Source: an uncultured Acidobacteriota bacterium (GTDB lineage Bacteria; Acidobacteriota; Thermoanaerobaculia; Multivoradales; UBA5704). From it: DNA of 64,000 bases. The stretch lies in contig CAVYRF010000002.1 of assembly GCA_963770895.1 (NCBI GenBank), positions 5,376,001 to 5,440,000 of the forward strand. Reading direction: 5' to 3'. Shown piece by piece: positions 4,093 through 64,000 of this stretch. A program made the position numbers and the translations under genes. Below the pieces are notes generated by a model that did no database searches, had not been told where the DNA came from, and was given only the letters and a program-made list of their open reading frames with translations. The stretch's first letter is position 1. Each line of letters starts with the position of its first letter.

Positions 4093-4226
4093 ACTTACGA
4101 CACGTGGACGGGATATTCGGGCCTCTGACGTATCTGACCATGGCGGAGGCCGCAAAGAACATGGAGTGACGATTGAGCGCGCGCTCGGGTATCGCCTCAT
4201 GCTGAGGTGGACATGCCCGCGTCCGA

Positions 4227-6288: not shown

Positions 6289-6464
6289 GATGGGGGGGTA
6301 TGCCGCCGGCGGGCGGTTGCAGATCCCGCAGGCATCCTAGTGCCCTGCGCGGCTCCTTTGCAAGGCATGCGCGTGCTTCCGGCCCCTGGCGGCGTTGCTC
6401 AAGCGGGCGCGGCGCCGGCCAGCCGTCGCCTTTCCAGCAAGGGTCCTGGCATACTCATACCCCC

Positions 6465-10553: not shown

Positions 10554-10648
10554 ATCTTCCTCCATGGAAAGAGAGATTCGGCCGGTCGGTTTACAACCAC
10601 GGCCGACACGTGAGTCCAGGAGAGCCGACAAAAGGTTCAATTCGCCGG

Positions 10649-10806
10649 CGACCTGCCGGGAGTGCCGGGCCAGGCGGCAGCCCCGGCCGACCTGCCGGGA
10701 GTGCCGGGCCAGGCGGCAGCCCCGGCCGACCTGCCGGAAGTGCCGGGCCAGGCGACAGCCCCGGCCGACCTGCCGGGAGTGCCGGGCCAGGCGACGGCCC
10801 CGGCCG
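10649..10806. repeat. Intergenic tandem repeat, 39 bp x 4
   Basis: Unit CGACCTGCCGGGAGTGCCGGGCCAGGCGGCAGCCCCGGC starts at 10649, 10688, 10727 and 10766 with few substitutions. Confidence 0.95.
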
Positions 10807-10946
10807 CCGCGCCTATCTGGTTTCGACTGTGGCGCGGCGCGGTTGGCCGGCAACGGCGGGCGGTGGGCTGGGGCCTGCGGCACAGTGGCAGGGGCCTTGC
10901 ACGCCTGGTGGCAGGAGCTTCATGGCTCTCTACCAAGGAGACACTG

Positions 10947-13606: not shown

Positions 13607-13798
13607 ATTCGCACTGTGTACCGACCGTGATGTCTTTCTATCATGCCTGACTGTTTAGGCGCTCTCGACTCCGCGCCGCGATCTTGAGTACCATCTGGTC
13701 TCTCTGGTCTGCGCTCACAACACTGATCGAAGAAGCTGCTGCCGGTGAGTCTGCCTCGGGGAGTGGATGCCGGGGGCGGGCAGGCCACAGGAGGTGCG

Positions 13799-41017: not shown

Positions 41018-41105
41018 TTGATACGCTCGATTTTAGAAGAAGTGCGCGCGCACGAAGTTGCACCGGCGGCAGCTCGTCTTCTGCGACCATCCTGAGGATC
41101 AGCGA

Positions 41106-44100: not shown

Positions 44101-47100
44101 TGCTGCAACGGCTGCCGTCCGCCATGCTGCCCGCGGCGCTGGTCGTGCTGGCCGCCCTGCCGCTCACCGCCGGCGGCAAGGTCGACCGGCGGGCGCTGCC
44201 CGAGCCCGATTGGCGCCAGGCCCACGAGGCGCATCGCTTCGTGCCGCCGCGCAACCAGGTCGAGGCGCTGCTGGCCGGCATCTGGGCCGAGCTTCTGGGG
44301 CGCGGCCCGGTCAGCGTCGAAGACGACTTCCTGGGCTCCGGCGGGCATTCGCTGCTGGCGGCGCAGGTGGTGTCTCGGGTGCGCCAGCTGTGCGGCGTCG
44401 AGCTGCCGCTGCGCGCTCTCTTCGAGGCGCGCACGGTGCGCGGCCTGGCGGAGCAGGTGGAGGCGGCGACCGGCGCGGGCGGCGCACCGCCGCCCATCGT
44501 GGCGCAGCCGCGCGGCGCCACCGCGCCGCTGTCGTTCGCGCAGCAGCGGCTGTGGTTTCTGGAACAGTTCCAGCCCGGCACGGCTCTCTTCAACATGCCG
44601 GGCGCGGTGCGCCTCAGCGGGCCGCTGCGCTACCCGCTGCTGCGCCGCGCCCTGGACCAGATCGTGGCGCGCCACGAGGTGCTGCGCACCACCTTCGTCA
44701 CCGTGGACGGCCAGCCGGTGCAGGCGATCGCCGCCGCCGCGGCGCCGGGACCGGAGCCGCAGCAGCCGCTGCCGGTCGTGGACCTGACGGCGCTGCCCGA
44801 GGGCGGCCGCGACGCCCTTCTGCGGCGGCTCATCGCCGCCGAAGCGCGCCGTCCCTTCGACCTTGCCGCCGGAACGCGAGCTGAGGCGGGTGCCGGCGGG
44901 CCACCGCGGTCCGCCGGCCGAGCTCAGGCGAGTGCCGGCGGGCCATCGAGGCCGGCCGGCCTGCTGCGCACCAGCCTGCTGCGCCTGGGGCCGGCGGAGC
45001 ACGTGGCGCTGCTCACCTTCCATCACACGGTGGCGGACGGCTGGTCGCTGTCGGTCTTCCTGCGCGAGCTGGCGGCGCTGGTCGGCGCCTGGTCGGCGGG
45101 GCACCCCTCGCCCCTGGCCCCACTGCCCTTCCAATACGCCGACTTCGCCATCTGGCAGCGGCAGTGGCTGCAAGGGCAGGCGCTGGCGGGCGAGCTGGGC
45201 TACTGGCGGCAGCAGCTGGCCGGCGTGCCGCAGCTGCTGGAGCTGCCCACCGACCGGCCGCGTCCCGTCGAGCAGAGCTTCCGCGGCAGCTCGCGCCAGC
45301 TCACCCTGGACGCGCCCGTCGTCGCGGCGCTGACGGCGTGGGGCCAGCACCGCGGCGGCACGCTGTTCATGACGCTGCTCGCCGGCTTCGCGGCACTGCT
45401 CGGCCGCCTCGCCGGGCAGACCGACGTGGTGATCGGCTCGCCGATCGCCGGCCGCGACCGCCGCGAGCTGGAGGGGCTGATCGGCCTCTTCGTCAACACC
45501 CTGGCGCTGCGCGTCGACCTGGCGCAGCAGCCCGACGGCGACCTGCTGCTCGATCGCATCCGCCGCATGGCGCTGGGCGCCTATACCCACTCGCACGTGC
45601 CGTTCGAGCGGCTGGTCGACGAGCTGAGCCCGGCGCGCAGCGGCAGCCACGCGCCGATCGCGCAGGTGGCGCTGGTGCTGCAAAACCTGCCGCCGGCGCC
45701 GCTGCGGCTGCCCGGCCTGGCGATGGAGCCGCTGGCGGCGGCGAGCGATACCGCCAAGGTCGATCTCACGCTGTCGCTCACCGAGGTGGAGGGCACCCTG
45801 ACCGGCGCGCTGGAGTGGGCCGCCGACCTGTTCGATGGCACCACCATCGACCGCCTGGCGGGGCACCTGGCGGTGGTGCTCGCCGCCCTGGCGGCCCACC
45901 CCGAGCGCCGCGTCAGCGACCTGCCGCTGCTCACCGCCGGCGAACGGCACCAGCTGGTGCACGAATGGAACGACACCGCGGCGGCGGCCGGCGGGGCCGG
46001 CGGCACCGCCTGGCGCGGCCGCTGCCTGCACGAGCTGTTCGAGGAGCAGGCCGAGCGCACCCCCGGCGCCCTGGCGGCGGCCAGCGGGGTCGGTGGCGCC
46101 GGCGGTGCGTCGCTCACCTACGCGGAGCTGGATCGGCGCGCCAACCAGGTGGCGCGGTTCCTGATGGCGCGCGGGGTCGGACCCGAGGTCCGCGTCGGCC
46201 TGTGCATGGAGCGTTCGCCGCTGCTGCTGACCGCCATCCTGGGTATCTGGAAGGCGGGCGGCGCCTACCTGCCGCTCGATCCGGCGCAGCCGCGCGAGCG
46301 CCTTGCCGGGCTCGCCGCGGAAGTGGCGCTGGTGGTGACCGAGACGCGCTGGCGCGAGCGCCTGCCGGCGGCGGCCGCGGCGGTCGAGCTCGACGCCGTG
46401 CAGCGCCAGCTGGACGGCGTCGACGGCCGCCGCCCGGCGGTGCGGATGGCGGCGGCCAACCTGGCCTACGTCCTGTACACCTCGGGCTCGACCGGCGCGC
46501 CCAAGGGGATCATGGTCAGCCATCGCGGCCTGGTCCACTACCTGACCTGGGCGGTCGAGGCGTACCAGATGCGGCTGGGGGGCGGCGCCCCGGTCACCTC
46601 GCCGCTCGCCTTCGACCTGACGGTGACGGCGCTGTTGGCGCCGCTGCTCGCTGGGCGCTGCGTCGAGCTGCGCGGCGGCGGCGGCGAAGGCGGCGACGAC
46701 GGCTTCGAGGCGCTGCGCTCGGTGTTGGGGGGTGGCGGTGTGGACGGCGTGGGCGGCGTTGGTGACATTGCCGACTACAGCCTGGTCAAGCTCACCCCCG
46801 CCCACCTTGAGCTGCTGCGTCAGGATCCGGCCGGCTGGGACCTCCGGGCGCGCGTGCGGGTGCTGATCCTGGGCGGCGACGCGCTGCAGGGGGAGACCTT
46901 GGACCTGTGGCGCACCCGCAGCCCCGCGACGCGGGTGATCAACGAGTACGGTCCGACCGAAACCGTGGTCGGCTGCTGCGTCTACGAGGTGCCCGCCGGC
47001 GCCGCCGCCGCGGGGCCGGTGCCGATCGGGCGGCCGATTCCCAACATGCGCGCCTACGTGCTGGACGCCAACCTGCTGCCGCTGCCGGTGGGCGTGCCCG

Positions 47101-49445
47101 GCCACCTGCACCTGGCGGGGGCGGGCCTGGCGCGCGGCTACCACGGACTGCCGGGGCTGACCGCGGATCGGTTCATTCCCGATCCCTTTGCCGCCGCCCC
47201 CGGCGGCGAACGGCTGTACCGCACCGGCGACCTGGTGCGGGCGCTGCCCGACGGCCGCCTGGACTTTCAGGGGCGCATCGACCACCAGGTCAAGGTGCGC
47301 GGCTTCCGCATCGAGCTGGGCGAGATCGAATCGGCCCTGGCGGCGCACCCCGGCGTGCTGGCGGCGGCAGTGGCCGCCCCCGCCGGCGCCGCCGGGCAGC
47401 GGCGGCTGGTGGCCTTCTGGGTGCCGCGGCCGGCTGACGCCGCCGTTGCCGCAGACACGCTGGCGCCGGGCGACCCCGCGGCGGCCGCGCAGCTCCAGCT
47501 GACGCCGGCCGCGCTGCGCGCCTTTCTGGGCGGGCGGCTGCCGGAGTACATGGTGCCGGCGTCGTTCGTGGCGCTGGCGGCGCTGCCGCAGACGCCCAAC
47601 GGCAAGCTCGACCGGCGGGCGCTGCTCGCCCGCGCCGCGGCGGGGGAGGGCGAACGCTCGGGCGCCGCCGCGCTGTTGTCCGGCGGGGTCGGCGGGGCCG
47701 GCGCTGGCGGCGGTGACGCCGCCGCGGCGCGCGCCTTGACGCCGGTCGAAGCGACGCTGGCGGCGGTCTGGGCCGAGGTGCTGCGGCGCCCGGACGTCGC
47801 CCTGCACGACAACTTTTTCGAGCTGGGGGGCGACTCCATCCTGTCGCTCCAGGTCGTCGCCAAGGCCCGCCAGGCGGGGCTCCTGCTGCGCTCGCGCGAC
47901 CTGTTCCAGTATCAGACCGTGGCGCAGCTGGCGGTGGTGGCGGTGGAGGAGGCGGCGCAGGCCGCCGGCGGTGCCGTGGCGGAAACCGGCGACGGCCCGC
48001 TGACGCCGATCCAGCACTGGTTCTTCTCCCTGGGCCTCACCGACCCCCACCACTTCAACCAGGCGCTGATGGTGGACGTGCGGCCGGCGGTGACGCCGCG
48101 CGGTCTGCGCCAGGCGCTGTCGCGCGTCGCCGCCCGGCATCCGGCCCTGCACAGCCGCTTTGCGCACGAGGCGGAGCTGGGCTGGCGCCAGGTCGCGGTG
48201 CCGGCGCCGGCGGCGGGCGTGGCGCTGCCGATCGTCGACCTGTCGGCCCTGCCGGCGGCGCGGCGCGCTGCCGCCGTGGAGGCCGCGGCGGGCAGCCTGC
48301 AGCAGAGCCTGGACGTCGAGCGCGGGCCGCTCTTCCGGCTGGCGCTGTTCGCCCTGGGCGACGCCGGGCGGCGGCTCTTCCTGGTGTTCCACCACCTGGT
48401 CATCGACGTCGTGTCGTGGCGCATCCTGCTGGCGGACCTCGAAGCCGCCTACCAGGCGTATGACGGAGGGAACGAGCCGGCGCTGCCGCCGGAGCTCACC
48501 TCGCCGCGGCGCTGGGCGGCGCAGCTGGCGGCGCACGCTCGGGAGGCGGCCGTGGCGGCCGAGCTGGACTATTGGCTGGACGGCGCCCGCGCCGGCGTCC
48601 GCCCGCTGCCGCGCGACCGGGCGGCGGCGACCAACGGCATGAGCGAAGCCAGCGTCGTCCTGGTCGACCTGGACGGCGACGAAACCAGGGCGCTGCTCGA
48701 GACGCTGCCGGCGACCCATCACGTGGCGATCCAGGACGTGCTGCTGACCGCGCTGGCGCAGGTGCTTGCCGGCTGGCAGCGCGAAACCCGGCTGCTGGTG
48801 GACCTGGAGGGGCACGGCCGCGAAGAGCTGTTCGCCGGCGTCGACACCGCGCGCACCGTCGGCTGGCTCACCACGCTGTACCCGGTGCTGCTCCAGCTGG
48901 ACGGCGGCGACACGCGCCGGCCGCTCGACCAGCTGCGCGCGATCAAGGAGCAGCTGCGCGCCGTGCCGCGCGGCGGCATCGGCTACGGCCTGCTGCGCTA
49001 CCTGGGCACGCCGGAGCAGAGGCAGGCGCTCGACCGCCTGCCGGCGGCGGAAGTGGTGTTCAACTACCTGGGCCAGCTCGACCGCGGCCTGCCCGAATCG
49101 CGGTTCTTCGGCCTGGCCGGCGAAAGCGGCGGCGCGCCGCGCAGCGCGCGGCAGCAGCGCAATCACCTGCTGGAGATCAACGGCGGCGTCTTCGCCGGCT
49201 GCCTGCGGTTGATCTGGACGTACAGCGCCGGTGCCCACGATCGCGCCACGATCGAGGCGCTGGTGGACCGCTTCCGTGCCGCCCTGCGCTCGTTGATCGA
49301 GCAGGGCACGCGCCAGGAAGCGGCCAGCTTCACGCCCTCGGACTTCCCCGAGGCGCGCCTGGGTCAAAAGGATCTCGACATGTTGATCGCCCGCATCGGC
49401 AAGCGTCCGCCCGCGGCAAGGACAGGACGGCCGAAGTCCGTATGA
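41106..49445 (+). CDS. NRPS-B, 2 modules: C-A(unknown)-T-C-A(Asn)-T-E-COM donor
   Basis: GAGGA before ATG 41106. A2 code DLTKIGEVGK (Asn) and T2 GGDS. E motifs HHLVID, EGHGRE, RTVGW, GIGYGLLRY and FNYLGQ. C-terminal TPSDFP...DLDML. Confidence 0.95.
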   Translation: MERDEIAARLAGLSPAKRALLDRRRRGEAAAPRTDVLVRRAGAGPAPLSFSQQRLWLLDQLDPGTPAYNLRILLQLTGTVDRRALARSFAAMVARHHVLRSAHTVADGAPVQVVLPHLDLPLPAIDLAALPPPRRQGEALRQARLLAGLGFDLARPPLLRTISMVCGDSLDLLLVVLHHAVADGWSFDVVLRELTALYTAFTQGLPSPLAELPLQYADFAVWQRQQFTDGALAGELAHWRRQLAGAPPATELPTDRPHPARPSGRGASRAFALPPQAAAAAAELARRQAATPFMVLLATLQALLLRYTGEEDLVVGSPVAGRNRPEVAGLIGFFVNTLALRGDLAGDPAFQELLARARDTVLDAFAHQDLPFERLVEELHPQRDPGRHPIFQVMLAFQHAPAGDVQLPGLALRQVEIESGSAMFELSWSLRQRQDGLVGTVEYSTDLFDATTAERWIAHFERLLVGGLEDPQRRLSEIPLLSAAEAEALTRCNQSAVPFGDAACLHDMFAAQAAAHGDTPAVVFQDRVLTYGELDRRSGLLARHLQNLGVAADVPVGLCVGRSLDLAVGILGVLKAGGAYVPLDETHPPERLAMMLADARCPVLLTQAQLAERWPPQQAVVLRLDGDWDAIAHAGAAATAAAGGAGRAPVTAANLAYVIYTSGSTGRPKGVACSHAGVVNIMADLERRWQVGAGDGCAMWTGASFDVAVWEIFSALCHGGTLHIPAESERTTAAALFPWMVRHAIRSLYLPGFLLAAYARWVGAGDASRRQLARLLVGVEPIAERLLADLLAAVPGLRIVNGYGPTEATVCATFYDLGRGPAGQGRTPIGLPVANCRVHLLDPHLAQVPPGVPGEVAIGGPGLARGYFDDPRRTALSFVPDPFGAAAGEPGGRLYRTGDRARRRADGNLIFLGRSDHQVKLRGVRVELAEIDQALCQHPAVRTAVAVVRPDPGGEKQLVAYVVARQGHGVSGGGSAEAGAGLSGAGDPGGELADWREFLLQRLPSAMLPAALVVLAALPLTAGGKVDRRALPEPDWRQAHEAHRFVPPRNQVEALLAGIWAELLGRGPVSVEDDFLGSGGHSLLAAQVVSRVRQLCGVELPLRALFEARTVRGLAEQVEAATGAGGAPPPIVAQPRGATAPLSFAQQRLWFLEQFQPGTALFNMPGAVRLSGPLRYPLLRRALDQIVARHEVLRTTFVTVDGQPVQAIAAAAAPGPEPQQPLPVVDLTALPEGGRDALLRRLIAAEARRPFDLAAGTRAEAGAGGPPRSAGRAQASAGGPSRPAGLLRTSLLRLGPAEHVALLTFHHTVADGWSLSVFLRELAALVGAWSAGHPSPLAPLPFQYADFAIWQRQWLQGQALAGELGYWRQQLAGVPQLLELPTDRPRPVEQSFRGSSRQLTLDAPVVAALTAWGQHRGGTLFMTLLAGFAALLGRLAGQTDVVIGSPIAGRDRRELEGLIGLFVNTLALRVDLAQQPDGDLLLDRIRRMALGAYTHSHVPFERLVDELSPARSGSHAPIAQVALVLQNLPPAPLRLPGLAMEPLAAASDTAKVDLTLSLTEVEGTLTGALEWAADLFDGTTIDRLAGHLAVVLAALAAHPERRVSDLPLLTAGERHQLVHEWNDTAAAAGGAGGTAWRGRCLHELFEEQAERTPGALAAASGVGGAGGASLTYAELDRRANQVARFLMARGVGPEVRVGLCMERSPLLLTAILGIWKAGGAYLPLDPAQPRERLAGLAAEVALVVTETRWRERLPAAAAAVELDAVQRQLDGVDGRRPAVRMAAANLAYVLYTSGSTGAPKGIMVSHRGLVHYLTWAVEAYQMRLGGGAPVTSPLAFDLTVTALLAPLLAGRCVELRGGGGEGGDDGFEALRSVLGGGGVDGVGGVGDIADYSLVKLTPAHLELLRQDPAGWDLRARVRVLILGGDALQGETLDLWRTRSPATRVINEYGPTETVVGCCVYEVPAGAAAAGPVPIGRPIPNMRAYVLDANLLPLPVGVPGHLHLAGAGLARGYHGLPGLTADRFIPDPFAAAPGGERLYRTGDLVRALPDGRLDFQGRIDHQVKVRGFRIELGEIESALAAHPGVLAAAVAAPAGAAGQRRLVAFWVPRPADAAVAADTLAPGDPAAAAQLQLTPAALRAFLGGRLPEYMVPASFVALAALPQTPNGKLDRRALLARAAAGEGERSGAAALLSGGVGGAGAGGGDAAAARALTPVEATLAAVWAEVLRRPDVALHDNFFELGGDSILSLQVVAKARQAGLLLRSRDLFQYQTVAQLAVVAVEEAAQAAGGAVAETGDGPLTPIQHWFFSLGLTDPHHFNQALMVDVRPAVTPRGLRQALSRVAARHPALHSRFAHEAELGWRQVAVPAPAAGVALPIVDLSALPAARRAAAVEAAAGSLQQSLDVERGPLFRLALFALGDAGRRLFLVFHHLVIDVVSWRILLADLEAAYQAYDGGNEPALPPELTSPRRWAAQLAAHAREAAVAAELDYWLDGARAGVRPLPRDRAAATNGMSEASVVLVDLDGDETRALLETLPATHHVAIQDVLLTALAQVLAGWQRETRLLVDLEGHGREELFAGVDTARTVGWLTTLYPVLLQLDGGDTRRPLDQLRAIKEQLRAVPRGGIGYGLLRYLGTPEQRQALDRLPAAEVVFNYLGQLDRGLPESRFFGLAGESGGAPRSARQQRNHLLEINGGVFAGCLRLIWTYSAGAHDRATIEALVDRFRAALRSLIEQGTRQEAASFTPSDFPEARLGQKDLDMLIARIGKRPPAARTGRPKSV
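44877..44960 (+). repeat. In-frame 2 x 42-bp hairpin repeat in NRPS-B C2 (copy 1 of 3)
   Basis: Encodes RAEAGAGGPPRSAG-RAQASAGGPSRPAG between PFDLAAGT and LLR. Confidence 0.9.
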
Positions 49446-51857: not shown

Positions 51858-54335
51858 TTAGTCGGTGCGCAGGGCGACGACGGGCGGGACGTGAGTGGCT
51901 TTGCGGCCCGGGATGTAGGTGGCGATCAGCACGGTGAGAATCAGGCCCAGGGCGACGGCGGCGAAGGTGATGGGGTCGGTGGTCGAAACGCCGTAGAGCA
52001 GGGAGCCCATCAGGCGGGTCATCACCACGGCGGCGGCCAGGCCGATGACGATGCCGAGGGCGGCCAGGCGGGCAGCTTCCATCAGCACCATGCGCAGCAC
52101 CGTGCCGGATTCGGCGCCGAGCGCCATGCGCAGGCCCAGCTCGCGCGTGCGTTGCGAGATGGAGTAGGCGGTGACGCCGTAGATGCCGATGATCGCCAGC
52201 ACCAGGGCGAGGCCGCCGAACAGGCCGAGCAGCATGACGCTGAAGCGGGGCTTGTCGACCGAGGTGGCGACCATCTGGTCGAGGGTGCGGATGCGCGACA
52301 CCGGCTGGCTGGGATCGACCTGGTTGACGGCGCCGCGCACCGCCGGCACCAGCGACATCGGGTCGACCGAGGTGCGCATGGCGATGCGCATCAGGAAGTT
52401 GACCATCATCGGGTTCTGCACCGGCACAAAATACATCTGCGACTGCAGATCGCCCATCAGGCCCGCTTCGCGCACGCTGCCGACGACGCCGACGATGGTG
52501 TACGGCGCGGGATTGGTCTTGCCCAGCAGCAGGTGCTTGCCGATGGGGTCTTCGTTGCCGAAGTAGTTTTTTGCCAACGTCTCGTCGATCATGACCACCT
52601 TGAGCGATTCGGCGGTGTCGGCGCTGCTGATCAGCCGGCCGCGCAGCAGCGGGATGTGCATCATCTCGAAGTAGCCGGGATCGGCGGCGCGCTGCAGCGC
52701 CACCTGGCCCAGGCCCTGCTCCGAAACCACGGTCCTGGGCGCCTGGCCTTCGATCTTGAACATCCGGAAGCCGCCGTCGCCGTCCATCGGCAGGTCGGAG
52801 ACGACGTAGGCCGAGGTCACCCCGGGCAGGGCGCGGATCTTGTCGACCACCCGTTCCAGGAACGGCAGCCGCGTCGCCACCGGGTAGCGATCCATCGGCA
52901 GGGCCAGCTCGATGGTCAGCGCCCGGGACGGGTTGAAGCCGGGATCGACGTCCAGCAGGTGCATGAAGCTGCGCATCAGCAGGCCGGCGCCGATCAGCAG
53001 CAACGTCGCGAGCGCCACTTCCGCGGCGACCAGGATGTTGCGCGTGCGATGGCTCTTGGCCGTGCCGGCGCCGGCGCGGGTCCCTTCGCGCAGCGACCCG
53101 GAGAGATCGGGGCGCGTCATCTGGAGAGCCGGTGCCAGACCGGCGAACAGGCTGGCCAGGATGCACAGCAGAGCGGTAAAGCCGATGGCGCGCGCGTCCA
53201 GCGAGAAGCCGCCGACGACCGCCAGGCCGACAGGAATGGACGCCGAGAAGGTGCGCAGCGCGATCTCGGCGAGGACGATGCCGATCGCGCCGCCGAGCAG
53301 GGCCAGCAGGCCGCTCTCGGTGAGCAGCTGGCCGATCAGCTGGCCGCGGCTGGCGCCCATCGCCATGCGCAGAGCGATCTCTTTCTGGCGCGACGCGGCG
53401 CGGGCGAGCAGCAGGTTGGCGACGTTGGCGCAGGCGATCAGCAGCACCAGGCCGACCGCCGCCCACAGCACGATGAGCGCCGTGCGCAGGTGACCGCGCA
53501 TCTGGTCGAGCAGCGGCTGCACGCTGGAGCTCCAGCTGGCGTCGGTCTTGGGGTACAGCTCGCCAAGGCGCAGGCTCAGGGCCTGCAGCTCGGATTGCGC
53601 CGCCGCCACCGTCACCCCCGGACGCAGCCGCCCGATCACCACGTCGTAGCGCACCGTGCGGTTCTGCCGCGCGTCGGCGTTGAGCGCGGTCGGCGCCCAC
53701 AGGTCGGTTTCGGGGGCAAACCCGTAGGGGCCGGGCGTTTCGAAGCCGCCCAGCGGGAAGGTGAAGCGCGGCGGCATGACGCCCACCACGGTGTAGGGGT
53801 TGCCGCCCAGCTGGATGACCTTGCCGATGACTTCGGGGTTGGCGCCGAAACGGCGCTGCCACAGCGCGTGCGACAGCACCGCCACGGTCGATTTGCCCAA
53901 GCTGTCGTCGGCGGCGTCGAGGGTGCGGCCCAGGGCGGCATGGGCGCCCAGCACGCGGAAGAATTCACCGCTGACGCGCACGACGCCCAGCTGTTCGGGT
54001 TCGCCCTGGCCGGTCAGCGCCTGGCGGTCGGACTGCATCATGGCCAGGCGCTCGAACGAGTGGCTCATCTTCTCGAAGTCGTAAAACGCCGCGTCGGAGA
54101 CCGGACCCTTGACGCCCAGGCCCTCGGTTTGCGGCAGCTTTGTATTGGTCGCCCAGGCGATCACCAGCCGGCTGGGGTCCTGGAACGGGGGGGGAGTAAG
54201 CAGGATCGCATCGACGATGCTGAAGATCGCGGAGTTGGCGCCGACGCCCAATGCCAGCGTGAGGATCGCGGCGAAAGCGAGCTCTTTGCGCAAATTGCGA
54301 ACGGCGAGACGCAGGTTCTGGAAGAATTGGGTCAT
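51858..54335 (-). CDS. ADOP-family duplicated ABC permease (no ATPase gene in window)
   Basis: LTLALGVGANSAIFS, LLIACANVANLLLAR..SRQKEIALRMAMGA, QRTRELGLRMALGA and a C-terminal ALR. Confidence 0.9.
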   Translation of the reverse strand: MTQFFQNLRLAVRNLRKELAFAAILTLALGVGANSAIFSIVDAILLTPPPFQDPSRLVIAWATNTKLPQTEGLGVKGPVSDAAFYDFEKMSHSFERLAMMQSDRQALTGQGEPEQLGVVRVSGEFFRVLGAHAALGRTLDAADDSLGKSTVAVLSHALWQRRFGANPEVIGKVIQLGGNPYTVVGVMPPRFTFPLGGFETPGPYGFAPETDLWAPTALNADARQNRTVRYDVVIGRLRPGVTVAAAQSELQALSLRLGELYPKTDASWSSSVQPLLDQMRGHLRTALIVLWAAVGLVLLIACANVANLLLARAASRQKEIALRMAMGASRGQLIGQLLTESGLLALLGGAIGIVLAEIALRTFSASIPVGLAVVGGFSLDARAIGFTALLCILASLFAGLAPALQMTRPDLSGSLREGTRAGAGTAKSHRTRNILVAAEVALATLLLIGAGLLMRSFMHLLDVDPGFNPSRALTIELALPMDRYPVATRLPFLERVVDKIRALPGVTSAYVVSDLPMDGDGGFRMFKIEGQAPRTVVSEQGLGQVALQRAADPGYFEMMHIPLLRGRLISSADTAESLKVVMIDETLAKNYFGNEDPIGKHLLLGKTNPAPYTIVGVVGSVREAGLMGDLQSQMYFVPVQNPMMVNFLMRIAMRTSVDPMSLVPAVRGAVNQVDPSQPVSRIRTLDQMVATSVDKPRFSVMLLGLFGGLALVLAIIGIYGVTAYSISQRTRELGLRMALGAESGTVLRMVLMEAARLAALGIVIGLAAAVVMTRLMGSLLYGVSTTDPITFAAVALGLILTVLIATYIPGRKATHVPPVVALRTD

Positions 54336-54427: not shown

Positions 54428-54507
54428 GGTAATACCTTCCGTTGCAGACCCATGTAGCATAGGCTTTGCGCACTACCGTCAGCCCCTGGCGTGGAGAGCT
54501 TGAAACG

Positions 54508-57500
54508 ATGAATTCGCCCGATGATCGAGCCGCCGCGCTCGTCGAAACCTTGCTGTCACATCCGCACGGCGACGCCGCCGATATCGTGACAGAAGAATCG
54601 AACTTCACGAACATCGCAAGCGACGCCGCAATCGCAAATCCAGCCGCGGCGGTGGTGAACGCCGCCGGCTCCAGCAACGTTGCCGTCGCCGGGCGCGATC
54701 GCGCCGCCGCCGCGGTGCGCGATGCGACGGTCGAACGGCTGGCCGCGATCTGGCGGGAGGTCTTCGCGCTCGGCGCCGTTTCGCCGGCGGACAGCTTCTT
54801 CGCCCTGGGCGGCGATTCGCTCAGCGCGGCGCAGATCGTGGCGAGCGTCAACCAGGACTTCGGCATCGACCTGCCGATCGACGCACCGTTCGAAGCACCG
54901 CTGCTCGCCGATCTCGCCGCCGTCATCGCCGGGATGTGCGAAGCGGAGGCCGCCGTGGCCGTGGGAGCCGCGGCCGGCGCGGCGGCTGGCGTCGGCCAGC
55001 CGCTGACCGGCGGCGGCGCGCCAGACGCGGCAGTGCAACACGCCGATACGGCCGGCGCGGCCGGCGCGGCCGACGCCGGGCCGGCTGCGCCAGGCCCGGC
55101 TGGCGCGGTGCCGGAGCTCACGGCCGCGCAGGGCGCGGTGCCGGAGCGTACGGCGCCGTTGTCGTTTGCGCAGCGGCGGCTGTGGTTTTTGCACCAGCTG
55201 GATCCGCTCAACCCGGTGCACAACATCGCCGCGCTGCTGCGGCTGAGCGGGCCGCTGGACCGGCGGGCGCTGGCGCTGGCGCTGGCGACGATCGTGCGCC
55301 GTCACCACGCGCTGCGCACGGTGTTTCGTGCGGCCGGCAGCGAGCCGTCCCAGCAGACCGCCACGGTGGCGGCGGGCGCGGCGGCGGTCGTCGCGCTGCC
55401 CGGCATCGACCTGACGGCGCTGCCGGCGGCGGCGCGCCGGCGCGAGTGGGAGCGCAGCGCGGCACTGGTGGCGCGCATGCCGTTCGGGCTTGAGGACGGC
55501 GTGCTGCTGCGGGCGGCGCTGATCGCCGGCGCGCCGTGCGAGCATGGGCTGGTCCTGGCGTGGCACCACATCGCCGCCGACGGCTGGTCGCTGGGTGTTT
55601 TTCTGCGCGAGCTGACCGCCGGCTATCAGGCCCTGCGCGGCGGCGGGTCCTGGCACCCTGCCAATCTGCCGCTGCAGTACGCGGACTTTGCAACGTGGCA
55701 GCGCGGCTGGCTGCGCGACCAGACGCTGGCGGCGCGGCTCGATTTCTGGCGCCTGGCGCTGGCGGGGGCGCCGCCGGCGCTGGAGCTGCCGGCGGACCGG
55801 CCGCGGCCGACCGTGCTGTCGCACCGCGGCGCGCATCACGAACGGCGGCTGCCCGGCCGGCTGACCGAGCGCCTGGCGGCGACGGCGCACGACGGCAAGG
55901 CCAGCGTTTTCATGGCGCTGCTCTGCGGCTTCGCGGCGCTGCTGACGCGCCTCACGGGCGAAGAGGACCTGGTGTTGGGCACGCCCATCGCCGGCCGCCA
56001 GCGCCGAGACCTGGAACCGCTGATCGGCGTCTTCATCAACAACCTGGTGCTGCGCATCGACGCCGCGGGCGATCCCAGCTTCCGCCAGCTGCTGGCGCGC
56101 GTGCGGCAGGCGGCGCTCGCCGCCTATGCCCACCAGGAGGTGCCGTTCGAAGCGGTGGTGGATGCTTTGGGCGGCCAGCGCGACCTGTCGCGCACGCCGC
56201 TGTTCCAGGTCCTGTTCGTCGAGCAGAGCGCGCCGCTGCGCCGTGCGGCGCTGGCGGATCTGACCGTCGAGCCGCGCGAGATCGACCTGGGCACGGCGCG
56301 CTTCGACCTGGCGCTGGCGGTGGCGCCGGTCGAAGACGGCTGGCTGGGTACCTGGAAGTACAGCACCGACCTGTTCGACGCGCCGACGCCGATGCGCATG
56401 GCGGTTCAGCTGGAAGCCCTGCTGGACGCGGCGGCGGCGCAGCCCGACGTGCCGCTGTCGCGGCTCGCCTGGTTCGCCGCCGGCGAGCGCCACCAGGTGC
56501 TGTCTGGCTGGAACGATACGGCGGTGCGCTACGCCGACGGCGGCGTCTGCCTGCACCAGCTGATCGCGGCGCAGGCGGCGCGCACCCCCGCGGCGATCGC
56601 CGTGTCGGCCCCCGGTGTCGATCTGACCTATGGCGCCCTGGAGCGGCAGGCGGGGCAGCTGGCGCGCCACCTGGGCAGCCTGGGGGTGGCGGCGGAAAGC
56701 CTGGTGGGCGTCGCGGCCGAGCGCTCGGCCGAGATGGTCGTGGGCCTGCTCGCCGTGCTCAAGGCCGGCGCCGCCTACGTCCCCTTCGATCCCGGCTATC
56801 CGGCCGAGCGCCTGCGCTTCATGCTCGACGACGCGCGGGTCGGCGTTCTGCTCACCCAGAGCCACCTGGCCGCGGCGCTGCCGCCGCACGCCGCCCGCGT
56901 GGTGCTGCTCGACGCGCCGTTTTCCGGCGCAGCGGCTGCGCCCGCGGTGGGCGCGGCGTGGGCGCATGCCGACAGTCCGGCGTACGCCATCTACACGTCG
57001 GGCTCGACCGGCAGGCCCAAGGGCGCCGTGGTGACGCATCGCGGGATCGTCAACCGGCTGCTGTGGATGCAGCAGGAGTACGGCCTCGCGGCGGACGACC
57101 GGGTGCTGCAGAAGACGCCATACAGCTTCGACGTGTCGGTGTGGGAGTTTTTCTGGCCGTTGATCGCCGGGGCGCGGCTGGTGATGGCGCCGCCGGGCGC
57201 GCACCAGGACCCGGCCTGGCTGGCGCGCATCGTCCAGGCCCAGGGCATTACCACGCTGCACTTCGTGCCGTCCATGCTGCAGGCGTTCCTGGCCCTGGCC
57301 GGCGAAGACCTGGCGGCGGTGTGCCGCACGGTCCGGCGGGTGATGGCCAGCGGCGAAGCGCTGCCGGCCGAGCTGGCGGAGCGCGCCCTGGCGCGGCTGG
57401 GGGCGCCGCTGCACAACCTGTACGGGCCGACCGAGGCGTCGGTCGACGTCAGCTTCCACGCCTGCCAGAGCGACGGCGGCCGGCGGCCGGTGCCGATCGG

Positions 57501-60500
57501 GCGGCCGATCGCCAACCTGTCGCTCTACGTGGTCGACCGTCACGGTGACGCGGTGCCGCCCGGCGTGCCGGGCGAGCTGCTGATCGGCGGCGTCGGGCTG
57601 GCCCGCGGCTACCTCAATCGGCCCGAGCTGACGGCCGCCCGCTTCGTGCCCCATCCCTGGGATGAGCGCGGCGGCGGCAGGCTCTATCGCACCGGCGACC
57701 TGGCGCGCTTCCGCCCCGACGGCGCCATCGAGTTCCTGGGCCGCCTGGACCACCAGGTCAAGGTGCGCGGCGTCCGCATCGAGCTGGGAGAGATCGAAGC
57801 CGCCCTGGTGCGCCACCCGCGGGTGCGCGAAGCCGTGGTGATGCTGCAAAGCGGCGCGCCGAGCGCCGCGCCCAGATCGGCTGGCGCGCCGGGCGCCGTT
57901 GCGCCCAGATCGGCTGGCGCGCCGGGCGCCGTTGCGCCCTGGTCGGCCGGCGCGGGCGAACCGCGCCTGGTCGCCTATCTGACGCTGACCGGCACGGCAA
58001 ACGAGCCAGGCGCCGCGGAGCTGCGGCGCTTCCTGGGCGACAGCTTGCCTGACGCCATGGTGCCGTCGGCGTTTGTGGTGCTGCCGGCGCTGCCGCTGAC
58101 GCCCAGCGGCAAGGTGGATCGGCGCGCGCTGGCGGCTCTGGACGGCGTCGACCTGGCGGCGCCGGCGCGGGAGCGGCCGTGGACGGCGCCGGCTACGGCG
58201 CTCGAACGGCACCTGGCGGGCCTGTGGCAGGAGCTGCTGCGGGTCGAGCGCGTCGGTCGCGACGACAGCTTCTTCGAGCTGGGCGGCGACTCGATTCAGG
58301 GCGCGATGTTCATCAACCGGTTGCAGGCCGACCTGGGCGAAATCCTGTACGTGATGGCGCTGTTCGACGCGCCGACGGTGGCGGGCTTCGCCGCCTTTAT
58401 GGAGCGCGCCTACCCGGTGGCGGCCGCCCGCCTGGGCGCCGCGCCGGCAGGAGCGCCGGTCGAGGTACCCGGCGCTGAAACGGTGTCGCAGCAGGTGGAC
58501 GAGCTCGACGTGGAAGCGGCGCTGGCGGCGGTGCACGCCGCGGCCGTGCGCCGGCTGGGACGCGGGGCGGTGGAGCAGGCGGAGAGGGCCGGTCAGGGGG
58601 CGGCCCGGCGGCGCAACGCGCGGGCGGTGTTCATCCTGGCGCCCTTCCGGTCGGGCACGACGCTCTTGCGGGTGATGCTGGCTGGGCATTCGCGCCTGTT
58701 TGCGCCGCCCGAGCTGGAGCTGCTCGGCTTCGGCACCATGGCGGAGCGCGCCGGCGCCTATGCAGGGCGGAACGCTTTTGCGCTGGAAGGGCTGCTGCGG
58801 GCGGTGATGGAGCTGCGGGACTGCGATGCCGACGCGGCGCGGGCCTGGGTGGCGCAGGGCGAACGCGACGGGCTGACGGTGGCGGACGTGTATCGCCAGC
58901 TGCAGGAGGCCGGCGGCGGACGCCTGCTGGTCGACAAGACGCCCAGCTATGCGCTCGATATCGACACTCTGCGCCGGGCCGAACAGATGTTCGACCAGCC
59001 GCTGTACGTTCACCTGGTGCGGCACCCGCGGGCGACGATCGACTCGTACGTCGAAGCGCACATGGACCAGGTGTACGACTTCCCGTTCGCGCCCACGGCA
59101 CAGGCGGAGCTGGTCTGGATGCTGTGCCACCGCAACATCCTCGATTTCGTGGCGGAGATGGAGCCGCGGCGCGTGCACCGGCTGCGCTTCGAAGAGCTGG
59201 TCAAGACGCCGCGGCAAGCGATGACGGCGCTGTGCGACTTCGTGGGCGTGCCGTTCGAGGACGCGCTGCTGGCGCCCTACGAGGGGCGCCGCATGGCCGA
59301 CGGCCTGCACGCCGCGTCGCGCATGATGGGCGATCCCAAGTTCCACCAACATCGCGGCATCGCCGCGGAAGTGGCCGACCGCTACAAGCAGGCCGCGGGC
59401 GCGCTGCGGCCCCAAACCTGGCAGCTGGCCGCCCGCTTGGGCTACCAGGTGCCGGCCGGCGCCGGCGTTGCGGCGACCCCTGCCGGCGCGGCTGCTCCCT
59501 CCGAGCCGGCCGCCCTGACCGGCGCAGGTGGCGCGGCTGCTCCCGCCGACGCTGACGCCGTGACCGGTGCAGCCGGCGCGGCGCCCGCTGCCGCCGGCGC
59601 CGGTTCGGTGCTGGTGCCTGTGCCGCGGCAGGCTGGCGCCGTGCTGCCGCTGTCGTATGCGCAGGAACGGCTGTGGTTCCTGGCGCAGCTCGATCCGGCG
59701 AGCCCGGCGTACAACATGCCGGCGACGGTGATGATGGAGGGCGCGCTCAAGGTGGACAGCCTGGCGCGCGCCTTCGACGCGGTGCGGCGCCGCCACGAGG
59801 TGCTGCGCACGACGTTCCCGGCGGTCGCGGGCCTGCCGGTGCTGGCGGTGTCGGAGGACGCTTCGGGGGCGCTGCCGGTGGTGGATTTGGGCGGACTGCC
59901 GGCGGACCGGCGGCGGCCCGAAATGGAGCGGCTGGCGCTGGCCGAGGGGCGGCGGCCGTTCGACCTGGCCGGCGGGCCGCGAGCTGAGGCGAGTGCCGGC
60001 GGGCTACCGCGGTCCGCCGGCCGAGCTGAGGCGAGTGCCGGCGGGCCACCGCGGCCGGCCGGCCTGCTGCGCACGACGGTGATCTCCCTGGGCAGCCATC
60101 TCCACGCGCTGCTCGCGACCATGCACCACATCGTGTCGGACGGCTGGACGATCGGTATTTTGACCCACGAGCTGGCGGTGCACTATCGGGCGTCGGTGCT
60201 GGCGCAGCCGGCGGTGGCGGACCAGCTGCCGGCGCTGCGGTTGCAGTACGCCGACTACGCCGCGTGGCAGCGGCGGTGGCTGGACGACCAGGCCGTGGCG
60301 GGGCACCTGGATTACTGGCGGCGCCGGCTCTCCGGGTGGCTGCCGCCGATGGATTGGCCGACCGACCGGCCGCGCCCGGCCAACCAGACGTCGCGCGGCG
60401 CGCGGGTGTCGCGGACGCTCGCCGCGGCGCCGGCGCAGGCGCTGCGGGAGTGGAGCCGCCAGCAGGGGACGACGCCCTTTCTCACGCTGCTGGCGGCGTG

Positions 60501-63500
60501 GAGCGCTCTGTCCTGGCGCTGTACGGCACAGGAGGACCTGCTGTTGGGCATCCCCATCGCCAACCGCAACCGCGTTGAAGTGGAGGGGTTGATCGGGTTC
60601 TTCCTGAACATGGTCGTGGCGCGCACCGACGCGTCCGGCGATCCGACGCTGCGCGAGCTGCTGCGCCGCGCGAGCGACGGTTTTCTCTCCTCGGTGCCGC
60701 ACCAGGAAGTGCCGTTCGAGAAGCTGGTGGAGGCGCTGCACCTGCCGCGCGACCGCAGCCGCACGCCGGTGTTCCAGGCGCAGTTCTCGTTGCAGAACAC
60801 GCCGTCGGCGCCGCTGGCGCTGCCCGGCCTGACGCTGGAGATGGTGGAGATCCACAACCGCACGACCAAGTTCGACTTCACCGTCTTCCTGGTCGATCGC
60901 CCCGACGGTCTGACGACGACGCTGGAATACAACACCGACCTGTTCGACGCCGTCACCATGACGCGCCTGCTGGCGGCGTGGGAGACGCTGCTGGCAGGGG
61001 TTCCCACCGCCGCCGACCGCCGGCTTTCCGACCTGCCGCTGCTGCCTGCTGCCGAGAGGGCACAGCTGCTGGCGCCCTGGCCGCTGGCCGCGACGACCGC
61101 CGCCGCGTTCGGCGCGGCGCCGGCAGCCGTCATGGCGCCGCCGGCTGGCGCGGTGTGCCTGCATGAGCTGTTCGAGCAGCAGGTGCGGCGCCAGCCGCGC
61201 GCCGTCGCGGTGGTGCACGAGCTGGAGGAGCTGACGTACCAGCAGCTCAACCGCCGCGCCAATCAGCTGGCCCGCCGCCTGCGCGCCCTGGGCGTCGGAC
61301 CGGAAACGCCGGTGGGCCTTTGCGTCGAGCGGTCGCCCCGCCTGCTGGTCGGCATCCTGGGCATCCTGAAAGCCGGCGGCGCCTACGTGCCGCTCGATCC
61401 CGCCTACCCGCGCGAGCGCCTGGTCTACACGCTGGCAGACGCGCTGGCGGGAGCCGGTGCGGCGGCGGTGCAGGAAGGCGGCGTGAGAGCGGGCGCATCG
61501 CCGGCGGTGCTGGTGACGGAAGCCGGCGTGGCGGCGCTGATCGGCGACGATCTGCCGTTCGCGTTGACGCGCGTTGACTTCGATCGCGACGGCGCCAGCC
61601 TGGCCGGCGAAGACGGCAGCAATGTTGGCGATGTTGGCGATGTTGGCAATGTTGGCGATGTTGGTGGCGGGGGCCGCCGTGGCGATGGCGGCGGGGGCGG
61701 CGCCGCCGTGCCGGCCAACCTGGCCTATGTGATCTATACGTCGGGCTCGACCGGCCGGCCCAAGGGCGTGCCGGTCACCCATGCCAACGGCGCGCGGCTG
61801 CTCGCCGCGACCGCCCACTGGTTCGGCTTCGGCAGCGGCGACGTGTGGACGCTGTTCCACTCCGCCGCCTTCGACTTCTCGGTGTGGGAGATCTGGGGAG
61901 CGCTCGCGCTGGGGGGCCGGCTGGTGATCGTGCCGCGCCAGGCGACGCTGTCGCCGGCGCTGCTGCTGGAGCTGCTGGCGGGCGAAAAGGTGACGGTGCT
62001 CAACCAGACGCCTTCGGCGTTCCGCCAGCTGGCGGTAGCCGCCGCCGCCGACCGGCGCCGCCTGCCGGCGCTGCGCTGGGTGATCTTCGGCGGCGAGGCG
62101 CTGCCGCTCGACGCGCTCGCTCCCTGGCTGGCGCTCTACGGCCCGAGCGCCGGCCCGCGGCTGATCAACATGTATGGCATCACCGAGACCACCGTGCACG
62201 TCACCTACCGGCCGATCGCGGCCGGCGACCTGGCGCGGCCCGGCAACGGCAACGCGCCGATCGGCGAACCCATCCCGGACCTGCGCGTCCACCTGCTGGG
62301 GCCGCGCGGCGAGCTGGTGCCGGTCGGCGTCGCAGGCGAGATCCACGTCGGCGGTGCCGGCGTGGCGCGCGGCTATCTGCACCGGCCGGACCTGACCGCT
62401 CGCCGCTTCGTGCCGGACGCGTGGGGCGGCCAGGCGGGGGCGCGCCTCTACGCCAGCGGCGACCTGGCGCGCCGCCGGCCGGACGGCGACCTGGAATACC
62501 TCGGGCGCATCGACCACCAGGTCAAGGTGCGCGGCTTCCGCATCGAGCTGGGCGAGATCGAGGCGGTGCTGCGCGCCCACCCGCGGGTGCAGGACGCGGT
62601 GGTGACGCTGCGCCATGAAGACGGCGGCGGCGCCACCCCCGGAACCCCTGGCATGGGCAGCGGTCCTGGAGCCCCCGGAGCTCCCGGAGCCCCCGCAGCT
62701 CCCGGCGATCACCGCCTGGTCGCCCACTTCGTCCCCCGCCCCGGCAGCGCCGCCGCGGCGCCGGTGGACGCCGCCGAGCTGCGCGCCCACCTGCGGTCGC
62801 TGCTGCCGGAGTACATGGTGCCGGCGGCGTTCGTGGCGCTGGCCGCCATGCCTCTCACCCCCAGCGGCAAGATCGACCGCCGCGCCCTGCCGAGCGCCGG
62901 CGGGGGAGCGGACGCCACCGCGACTGCCGCCGCCGCCACCGCGGTGCCGCGCACGCCGACCGAGCGGCGCCTGGCGCAGATCTGGCTGGAGGTGTTGCGC
63001 ATCGAGCAGGCCGGGCGCGACGACAACTTCTTCGACCTGGGAGGCCATTCGCTGCTGGTCACCCAGCTGGCGTCGCGCATCCAAACGACGTTTGGCGTCG
63101 CGCTGCCGATGGCGAGCGTCTTCGACGCGCCGACGCTGGCCGGCCTGGCCGCCCGGATCGATGCCCTGTTGCCCGAAGCGCCGGCGGGTGGGGAAGCCGG
63201 CGCTGGGGACGCCGCCGCTGCCAGCGGCGGAGGAGGCGGTCTGCCGCCGATCCCGCGCGTCGCGCGCAATCTATTGCCGGCGGCGCCGGGGGCGCCAGGG
63301 TCGCCGGCATCGCTGCCGCCGTCGTTCGCGCAGGAGCGGCTGTGGTTCCTGGACCAGCTGCAGCCGGACAGCCCGTTTTACAACGTGCCGCTGTCGCTGC
63401 GCCTGCGCGGCCGCCTCAACGTCGCCGCGCTGGTGGCGACGTTCGGCGAGATCGTGCGCCGCCACGAGACGCTGCGCACGTCGTTCGCCGCCGCCAACGG

Positions 63501-64000
63501 CCAGCCGGTTCAGGTGGTGGCGCCGGCCGTCGCTGTGCCTATCCCGATCGTCGACGTCTCGGGGCTGGCGGCGGAGGCGCGACGCGAAGCGCTGCTCGCC
63601 CAGCTGGCGCACGACGAGGCGCGGCAGCCGTTCAACCTGGCGGGCGGACCGCGAGTTGAGGCGAGTGCCGGTGGGCCACCGCGGTCCGCCGGCCGAGCTG
63701 AGGTGAGTGCCGGCGGGCCACCGCGGCCGGCCGGCCTGCTGCGCCTGCGGCTGATCCGCCTGGGCGCCCAGGACCACGCCCTGCTGGCGACAGTCCACCA
63801 CATCGTCAGCGACGGCTGGTCGCTGGGCGTGCTGATCCGCGAGGTGGCGGCGCTCTATACGGCGTGCTGCCAGGGCCGGCCGTCGCCGCTGCTGCCGCTG
63901 GCCATCCAGTACGCCGATTTCGCCGCCTGGCAGCGCGGCTGGCTGCAGGGCGAACGGCTGGACCAGGAGCTGGACTTCTGGCGCGGCCAGCTGGACGGCG
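54508..64000 (+). CDS. NRPS-C (3'-truncated): T-C-A(Ser)-T-sulfotransferase-C-A(Thr)-T-C...
   Basis: Hand translation from ATG 54508 (GGAG upstream) keeps all domains in one frame to the window end, which explains its absence from the ORF track. T [18 protein letters not shown]; A code [34 protein letters not shown]; A code DFWNIGMVHK; T GGHSL; C HHIVSDG. Confidence 0.92.
   Translation, partial: [3164 protein letters not shown]
57853..57954 (+). repeat. In-frame 33-bp tandem repeat ([11 protein letters not shown]) in the A8-A9 region of the Ser A domain
   Basis: GCGCCCAGATCGGCTGGCGCGCCGGGCGCCGTT at 57868 and 57901, with partial flanking copies. Confidence 0.85.
58610..59450 (+). other. PAPS-dependent sulfotransferase domain (CurM/OLS ST-like) embedded in NRPS-C
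   Basis: [61 protein letters not shown] and GDPKF..H. Confidence 0.88.
59980..60063 (+). repeat. In-frame 2 x 42-bp hairpin repeat in the NRPS-C second C domain (copy 2 of 3)
   Basis: Encodes [28 protein letters not shown] between PFDLAGGP and LLR. Confidence 0.9.
61621..61665 (+). repeat. In-frame 9-bp microsatellite, (N/D)VG x 5
   Basis: AATGTTGGC GATGTTGGC GATGTTGGC AATGTTGGC GATGTTGGT just before the A3 motif. Confidence 0.85.
63652..63735 (+). repeat. In-frame 2 x 42-bp hairpin repeat in the NRPS-C third C domain (copy 3 of 3)
   Basis: Encodes [28 protein letters not shown] between PFNLAGGP and LLR. Confidence 0.9.

Follow-up and report, generated by a model that had tools for sequence, protein, structure and literature searches.

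The 64,000-nucleotide stretch analysed here (the window; contig CAVYRF010000002.1 of assembly GCA_963770895.1, positions 5,376,001 to 5,440,000) comes from an uncultured Acidobacteriota bacterium, probably a soil Acidobacterium, and ends within a nonribosomal peptide synthetase (NRPS) gene, here called gene C, that carries a sulfotransferase (ST) domain in the middle of its assembly line. The reading frame of gene C (54466..63999, plus strand) is free of stops to the window end and continues in the genome to the equivalent of window position 66702, which gives a protein of 4078 residues from the TTG start, or 4079 from stop to stop. Pfam identifies Condensation, AMP-binding, PP-binding and Sulfotransfer_3 domains, and the motifs place the carrier (T), condensation (C), adenylation (A) and ST domains in the order T1(GGDSL)-C-A-T2(GGDSI)-ST-C-A-T3(GGHSL)-C-A-T. 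Motif reading located no thioesterase (TE) in the full-length protein.

The carrier T2 (motif GGDSIQGAMF at residue 1273, nucleotide 58282), the ST and the second condensation domain, C2, which begins at LSYAQERLWF (residue 1729, nucleotide 59650), follow one another with neither a stop nor a frameshift between them. The ST region is also overlapped by three other open reading frames (two minus-strand frames and one further plus-strand frame), and these have zero Pfam matches. The in-line ST of gene C is genuine, far beyond chance. C2 looks ordinary, and its DNA is in part 82% identical to that of the next C domain.

The sulfotransferase domain and its carrier

Residues 1388–1599 of gene C match the Pfam family Sulfotransfer_3 (PF13469) with an E-value of 3.8e-27 and 96.4 bits against a cut-off of 27. 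A phmmer comparison of residues 1382–1664 with the Protein Data Bank (PDB) returned the ST of CurM (4gbm, E 2.5e-71) and that of the olefin synthase OLS (4gox, E 4.3e-65), followed by tyrosylprotein sulfotransferases (TPSTs) at E ~4e-4, and a profile built from 33 ST relatives matched 4gbm with an E-value of 1.4e-126. On these alignments the domain is assigned to the CurM/OLS family of carrier-dependent sulfotransferases.

The domain contains RSGTTLL at residue 1395 (nucleotide 58648), PPELE at 1414 (58705), DKTPSY at 1490 (58933), RHPRAT at 1519 (59020) and RFEELV at 1574 (59185). The RSGTT loop, the DK pair, RHPxxxxxS and the Glu of PPE are all intact, at positions 97–100% conserved in 172 relatives. 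In the RSGTT loop the Arg, the Gly and the second Thr are invariant and the Ser is kept in 97%, and the Arg, His, Pro and Ser of RHPxxxxxS are each kept in at least 99%. The roles of these elements in binding 3′-phosphoadenosine-5′-phosphosulfate (PAPS) and in catalysis are those that we take over from sulfotransferases in general. In the alignment with TPST2, Glu1416 falls on the second Glu of GEETR and Glu1418 on the Arg two residues on; these TPST2 residues are presumably Glu99, the catalytic base, and Arg101. The alignment of Glu1418 opposite the TPST2 Arg suggests that position 1418 may face the acceptor.

The ten-residue specificity codes of the A domains were extracted by alignment to the window's own A domains. 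The code is DVWHMSLVDK before the ST (A1) and DFWNIGMVHK after it (A2). The PDB matches of A1 include EntF (E 6.9e-98), an overall match and not a comparison of codes; EntF is a serine-activating enzyme. Carriers and codes were tallied in related, partly duplicated rows that had been chosen for having an ST. Among 86 carriers with a visible A domain and an ST behind them, 42 read GGDSI, 15 GGNSI, 15 GGDSL and none GGHSL, whereas 51 of 58 carriers without a following ST read GGHSL and four read GGDSI, one of the four being the carrier before the epimerization (E) domain of gene B, another NRPS gene of the window. With its GGDSI, T2 is of the type that stands ahead of ST and E domains.

These results bear out most of the initial annotation, which had been made from the sequence alone. 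It had described an ST fused in frame within an NRPS, of the CurM/OLS type, with the sulfotransferase motifs at the places found here and PPELE in place of PPELH, preceded by an atypical carrier of the kind expected to serve a tailoring domain, lying internally between that carrier and an ordinary C domain with no TE beside it, with an A domain of the Ser code given above before it and a Thr-type A domain after it. The coordinates of the domains and of the neighbouring genes are listed in Table 1.

Table 1 Features of gene C and of the surrounding cluster (window coordinates; aa, residue of the gene C protein).
Feature	Position	Strand	Remarks
NRPS gene C	54466..64000	+	TTG at 54466, first ATG at 54508; cut by the window end
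Loading carrier T1	54718..54945	+	GGDSL, Ser at aa 118; limits approximate
Condensation domain C1	55144..56496	+	HHIAADG at aa 367; Pfam PF00668, best stretch 227-677
Adenylation domain A1	56566..58140	+	code DVWHMSLVDK (Ser-like); Pfam and code alignment
Carrier T2	58192..58410	+	GGDSI, Ser aa 1276 (nt 58291-58293); limits approximate
Sulfotransferase domain	58609..59457	+	aa 1382-1664; assigned to the CurM/OLS family, NRPS-type clade
RSGTT loop	58648..58662	+	aa 1395-1399; predicted 5′-phosphosulfate binding
E1416-L-E1418 of PPELE	58711..58719	+	E1416 invariant in the ST alignment
Lys1491 of DKTPSY	58936..58938	+	invariant
RHPxxxxxS, R1519 to S1527	59020..59046	+	predicted 3′-phosphate-binding motif
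Ala1611	59296..59298	+	RMADG where relatives have RMTDG; Thr in 164/172 relatives
ST-C linker	59458..59649	+	Ala/Gly/Pro-rich; holds 45-nt x2.2 tandem repeat
Condensation domain C2	59650..60975	+	HHIVSDG at aa 1887; end approximate
Adenylation domain A2	61735..62880	+	code DFWNIGMVHK (Thr-like); limits approximate
GGHSL of carrier T3	63040..63054	+	ordinary carrier type
NRPS gene B	41058..49445	+	C-A-T-C-A-T-E
NRPS gene A	13745..39295	+	7 modules ending in TE
MacB/FtsX-type permease	51858..54335	-	between genes B and C; likely exporter

Relatives of the domain and known sulfotransferase systems

The comparison set comprises 172 ST segments, 167 of them distinct (five rows are identical to others). 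PPELE is read in 131 of the 172 rows and PPELH in 20, which makes Glu the commonest residue at this position; the domain that follows a PPELE ST is C in 64 cases and TE in 46. In a FastTree phylogeny of the 172 segments, 14 of the 15 cyanobacterial PPELH rows of the polyketide synthase (PKS) type cluster apart, and the gene C ST falls within a starred set of 28 rows that all read PPELE and that, where the flanks are visible, have a Ser-like A domain before the ST, a C domain after it and a GGDSI carrier (GGNSI in one). An IQ-TREE run on 62 representatives (LG+C20 PMSF, short search) split off 11 PKS-type PPELH rows by a branch with SH-aLRT 100 and left on its opposite side all NRPS-linked rows together with three rows linked to FkbH domains, whose position within the NRPS-side clade has weak support. 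By this phylogeny the gene C ST is a member of an NRPS-associated clade, characterized by PPELE and a GGDSI or GGNSI carrier, that is separate from the clade of PKS ST-TE proteins.

From the PKS-type to the PPELE rows the residue changes are Arg to Glu at position 1530, Asn to Lys at 1625 and His to Glu at 1418, the last of which is not an independent contrast because the two row sets were themselves drawn up by the residue in this column, the PKS-type set being 15 PPELH rows. Relative to the cyanobacterial PKS-type rows, the PPELE rows also show Ser to Pro, Ser to Ala, Ser to Thr and Tyr to Phe changes and one extra Gly. The label of the downstream domain (C or TE) switches at least six times on the ST tree. 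Labels are clustered on it, with 12 changes of A code against 27 after shuffling and 6 changes of downstream domain against 21; since kin share labels, this clustering supports no claim of co-evolution. A tree of 111 C domains was considered as evidence on mechanism and rejected: 19 of 20 C domains that follow an ST fall in one starred clade, and because they occupy orthologous positions of one cassette the tree is uninformative in this respect.

The genome (8.16 Mb in three contigs, GC 0.71) contains two further STs of the gene C type inside NRPSs, at C1:1807556-1830367 and C2:237254-270265, and all three STs read PPELE. The second ST belongs to a frame of 7603 residues that ends in A(DVWHVSLVDK)-T(GGNSL)-ST-TE, and the third to a frame of 11003 residues with A(DIWEITADDK)-T(GGNSI)-ST-C-A-T-TE. 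Only two of the seven Ser-like modules in the ST-bearing proteins of this genome carry an ST, which is thus a selective addition and not a general feature of Ser modules. The TE after the terminal ST has an NRPS TE as its best PDB match (7crn, E 2.2e-19), with 4zxh and EntF also matched; the CurM TE, under the entry code that we take to be its own, is not among the 34 PDB matches.

At least 1146 proteins match the ST at E<=1e-20 (7995 scored candidates of 497–2000 residues), and of the 120 matches listed, 114 also contain a Condensation, AMP-binding or PP-binding domain. Most of the named ST-fused proteins come from metagenome-assembled genomes (MAGs) of Acidobacteriota (Thermoanaerobaculia, Pyrinomonadaceae and Blastocatellia). 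The distribution is patchy: the ST occurs in 5 of 401 sampled genomes of the same phylum (E<=1e-40), among them both other members of the bacterium's own family, and in 19 of 301 cyanobacterial genomes (E<=1e-20). Two cyanobacterial sequences, from a MAG (L036) and from Moorena bouillonii (L037), read A-T(GGNSI)-ST(PPELY) with the ST at ~10016-10894; their A domains do not have the usual Asp235, read IGSSAFYAPK and IGCEAYYAPK, and probably load something other than an alpha-amino acid.

Species-representative genomes yielded 36 ST loci, mostly from Thermoanaerobaculia or Holophagales, of which 12 show the full start T(GGDSL/V)-C-A(Ser-like)-T(GGDSI)-ST(PPELE)-C; the ST-bearing first module is Ser-like in all 12. 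Seven of the 11 relatives examined carry, fused ahead of T1, an adenylating domain that ends in PKT(S/T)SGK and resembles a fatty-acid--AMP ligase (FAAL); the one in locus L010 matches fatty-acid--AMP ligase models (NF004509, E 2.2e-138, below the curated cut-off). Close relatives share a FAAL-T-C-A(Ser)-T-ST-C start cassette, so that the first residue of a lipopeptide would be the one served by the ST. In two loci (L019:4694-6304 and L030:3861-6359) a gene resembling FAD-dependent amine oxidases or desaturases lies directly upstream of an NRPS with a bare T1; its matches are weak (HpnE/CrtD-like, below cut-off), and no such gene adjoins gene C in the window.

Two kinds of in-line ST are already known: one next to a TE in PKSs and one between carrier and C domain in FkbH loading modules. 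The STs of CurM (curacin A, 4gbm) and OLS (4gox) share with that of gene C the fold family, the PAPS motifs and the invariant Glu, and cyanobacterial PKS-type STs are 44–46% identical to it. In CurM and OLS the acceptor hydroxyl is beta to the carrier thioester, as would be the hydroxyl of a serine in gene C. However, the CurM and OLS domains read PPELH, lie in the separate clade, and stand after ketosynthase, acyltransferase, ketoreductase and acyl carrier protein (KS-AT-KR-ACP) and before a TE, whereas the gene C ST reads PPELE, follows C-A-T and precedes C-A-T. The neighbours that define the ACP-ST-TE off-loading system of curacin, olefin synthase and haliamide, KS-AT-KR-ACP before and TE after, are both absent from gene C, and its ST is therefore not a member of that system.

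The closer parallel is the FkbH-PCP-ST-C arrangement (PCP, peptidyl carrier protein). The text available from four papers describes it for DysB, AerB, BslA and OciA and ties it to a glyceric acid unit, sulfated and often O-methylated, of dysinosins, suomilides, varlaxins and cyanopeptolin-type peptides, the sulfate being kept in the product of the named pathways (PMC6520454, PMC13122637, PMC10143770, PMC2533009). As in gene C, the ST lies between a carrier and a C domain. The comparison with gene C was made through other cyanobacterial genomes of the same architecture. The three best cyanobacterial ST matches (L076-L078; 47–48% identity, E 1.4e-86 to 3.7e-84) read T(GGDSI)-ST(PPELE)-C-A-T, and an FkbH domain (TIGR01686) precedes T-ST in both proteins scanned (E 1.6e-93 and 6.2e-93, above cut-off); the third, which the profile scan did not cover, shows no FkbH motif. 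The FkbH-type modules retrieved thus share with gene C the carrier-ST-C fusion, the GGDSI carrier, PPELE and the side of the tree. The difference lies in loading: glycerate is loaded by FkbH in a starter module, whereas gene C has no FkbH domain and its ST stands in an elongation module with a Ser-like A domain behind T-C. The sulfated hydroxyl of FkbH-type products is presumably also beta to the thioester. SulN (sulfazecin), which makes a sulfamate on diaminopropionate, and StaL (A47934) likewise perform PAPS-dependent sulfation in nonribosomal pathways, but they are described as separate proteins, which sets them apart; in the available part of its source, SulN acts on a carrier-bound intermediate (PMC11298585).

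The novelty claimed in the initial annotation has to be scaled back accordingly, as PCP-ST-C is in print for FkbH loading modules in the same four papers, in the parts available, and A-T-ST-C and A-T-ST-TE are abundant in metagenomes (the at least 1146 proteins above). A full-text search aimed at ST domains within NRPS modules, with many subscription papers and all supplements outside its reach, found no paper on A-T-ST-C, on A-T-ST-TE or on an ST behind an amino-acid-loading A-T. The available parts of papers on allopeptimicin (PMC9169493), Pseudanabaena (PMC11356792), kasumigamide (PMC5061366) and Entotheonella (PMC12858407), and of reviews on FAALs (PMC11837247) and PKS mutagenesis (PMC7327777), likewise contain no A-T-ST-C or A-T-ST-TE. 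New here are the split that defines the NRPS clade, the place of the FkbH-type STs within it, the FAAL-T-C-A(Ser)-T-ST-C cassette, the two additional ST-bearing NRPSs, one of them ending in T-ST and an NRPS-like TE, and the tally of A codes.

Predicted sulfation of a carrier-bound serine

With a bare carrier at its start and no TE, gene C would act first, before gene B, which ends in an E domain, and gene A, which ends in a TE, giving 12 modules in total with the ST acting on residue 1. The explanation favoured here, with modest confidence, is PAPS-dependent O-sulfation of the carrier-bound serine that would form residue 1 of a 12-residue, probably N-acylated peptide, the sulfate being retained. 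It starts from what is observed, namely the homology, the intact motifs, the architecture with its recurrence, and the kinship with the FkbH-PCP-ST-C sulfotransferases. In the proposed mechanism the ST works with PAPS and tailors in line, having been taken up by an elongation module of an NRPS. A1 would place L-serine on T2, a GGDSI carrier of the E type, and the ST would hold PAPS through RSGTT, Lys1491 and Arg1519/Ser1527. Glu1416 would act as the base on the serine beta-hydroxyl to give O-sulfoseryl-S-T2, either before or after C1 acylates the serine nitrogen with the cargo of T1, which in relatives would be a fatty acyl group from the fused FAAL. C2 would then join the sulfated unit to threonine, with the sulfate staying in the finished molecule, and genes C, B and A in order would yield a peptide of ~12 residues, an N-acyl-O-sulfoserine-headed lipopeptide.

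The A codes are broadly in keeping with a hydroxyl acceptor. Of the 86 codes that stand ahead of an ST, 37 resemble Ser codes, 8 Thr codes and 10 Tyr codes (DAST[IV]AAVCK), so that 55 of 86 would supply a residue with a side-chain hydroxyl; in the same proteins, the 58 A domains that lack a following ST include 8 with a Ser-like and 17 with a Thr-like code. The remaining 31 of the 86 comprise 5 Gly-like and 3 Dab-like (diaminobutyrate) codes, 7 of the form DGFFHGE.W, 4 of the form DALVSGCI. and 12 others. Retention of the sulfate is suggested by three features together: the clade shared with the FkbH-type STs, the A-code tally and the NRPS-like TE of the terminal form. The switching of one ST type between a following C and a following TE, the ordinary look of C2 and, as a source of PAPS, an APS kinase encoded in the genome also count in favour of the proposed reading.

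Several points weigh against this explanation. The 31 modules whose codes are not Ser-, Thr- or Tyr-like include the Gly- and Dab-like ones, in which the acceptor cannot always be the hydroxyl of the module's own residue, and the Dab-like DIWEITADDK before the third ST of the same genome is one of these, its residue having no side-chain hydroxyl. The tallies draw on rows selected for their ST, and the names given to the codes, Ser for DVWHMSLVDK and Thr for DFWNIGMVHK among them, are ones that we take to follow from the Stachelhaus code. No FAAL is present in the 64-kb window, and the 14 FAAL-like places of the genome all lie elsewhere; with T1 first in gene C, a fatty acyl starter is here something that we infer. 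The literature searched gave no product for any A-T-ST-C module. An O-sulfoseryl thioester is chemically prone to beta-elimination, and at position 1611 gene C has Ala where 164 of 172 relatives keep a Thr.

The propensity for elimination bears on the foremost alternative, in which the ST is an activating enzyme. As in CurM, the sulfate on serine would be a leaving group and its loss would leave a dehydroalanyl thioester or allow a ring to close onto the N-acyl carbonyl (an oxazoline) or another nucleophile, so that the product would be dehydrated or cyclised. Like the acceptor in CurM substrates, the serine hydroxyl lies beta to the thioester, and Ser- and Thr-like codes, which could lead to dehydroalanine or dehydrobutyrine, account for 45 of the 86 ST-preceding modules. 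CurM and OLS, the two biochemically characterized members of the family, use sulfate as a leaving group, according to the available part of a review (PMC11837247). Nonetheless, the gene C ST lies in the clade of the FkbH-PCP-ST enzymes, whose described products keep the sulfate, and the same ST type occurs in the 10 Tyr-like modules. A tyrosine sulfate cannot serve beta-elimination. The terminal ST of the genome is not accompanied by a TE of the CurM type, and C2 has no unusual features. This alternative is accordingly considered unlikely, while remaining the most serious of the three. The initial annotation had left two outcomes side by side, a sulfated peptide and a leaving group for dehydroalanine formation or ring closure; the comparisons made here lean towards the first and away from the second.

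A less probable alternative is that the ST sulfates a hydroxyl or an amine elsewhere on the tethered chain, for example on a hydroxylated acyl starter, and not the serine of its own module. This would accommodate the five Gly-like and three Dab-like modules with an ST, including the one in the same genome (X2). However, the starter and the serine are all that T2 would hold at the stage open to the ST, all 12 related loci have a Ser-like code in their first, ST-bearing module, the carrier's own unit is the only possible acceptor in FkbH modules, and no hydroxylase gene was seen adjoining gene C. That the ST is inactive or merely structural is very improbable: Ala1611 is the sole deviation from the positions at least 95% conserved among the 172 relatives, and it stands against intact PAPS-binding and catalytic-type residues, a frame without frameshifts and 66–67% identity to orthologues that retain the Thr. 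The profile alignment to TPST structures ends before the RMTDG motif that holds this position.

Few known natural products are sulfated nonribosomal lipopeptides, yet the in-line ST layout is common in uncultured Acidobacteriota (at least 1146 fused proteins at the threshold given above). If the serine is sulfated and the sulfate retained, the FAAL-T-C-A(Ser)-T-ST cassette would mark a class of anionic, O-sulfoserine-headed lipopeptides of which none is known to have been isolated, and the ST would be a portable in-line tool for on-carrier peptide sulfation, with the His to Glu and Arg to Glu switches as a handle on acceptor choice and perhaps on retention versus elimination. If instead the sulfate is a leaving group, the layout would represent a new and widespread route to dehydrated or cyclised residues without a heterocyclization (Cy) or dehydrating C domain, a peptide counterpart of curacin chemistry.

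Neighbouring genes and in-frame repeats

The MacB/FtsX-type permease between genes B and C is a likely exporter. An adenosine 5′-phosphosulfate (APS) kinase is encoded in the genome outside the cluster (E 7.2e-59). Two large RHS-repeat proteins lie directly downstream of gene C (L007:2858-9720), the first of which has a peptidase C39-like domain. Upstream of the cluster, window positions 55-8003 hold a gene resembling type IV secretion coupling proteins (55-2190), a large serine recombinase (2285-3850) and an ATP-dependent DNA ligase (6300-8003). The GC content of this region is 0.65–0.69, compared with ~0.75 in the NRPS genes, and the region may mark the border of an integrated mobile element.

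The NRPS genes contain several in-frame repeats. A 42-nucleotide unit that holds a 10-bp inverted repeat is present in two in-frame copies in each of three C domains of the window (44877-44961, 59980-60064 and 63652-63736) and in three copies at one genomic site. In C2 it forms an 84-nucleotide in-frame insert at 59980-60064. The doubled unit adds 28 residues of RAEASAGGPPRSAG-like sequence to these C domains. The insert occupies the same loop each time, between PFDLxxGP and LLR and ~45 residues before HHxxxDG; C domains without it read GPLLR straight through. Genome-wide there are 14 copies of the unit (<=5 mismatches) at nine sites, eight of which lie upstream of HHxxxDG in the same frame. 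Gene conversion among C domains could have spread the unit, which could alternatively be an in-frame insert resembling repetitive extragenic palindromic (REP) elements. Two further in-frame tandem repeats occur in gene C: a 33-nucleotide unit repeated 3.2 times in A1 (57853-57954), which encodes APRSAGAPGAV-like units, and the 45-nucleotide unit of the ST-C linker, which spans 59482-59582.

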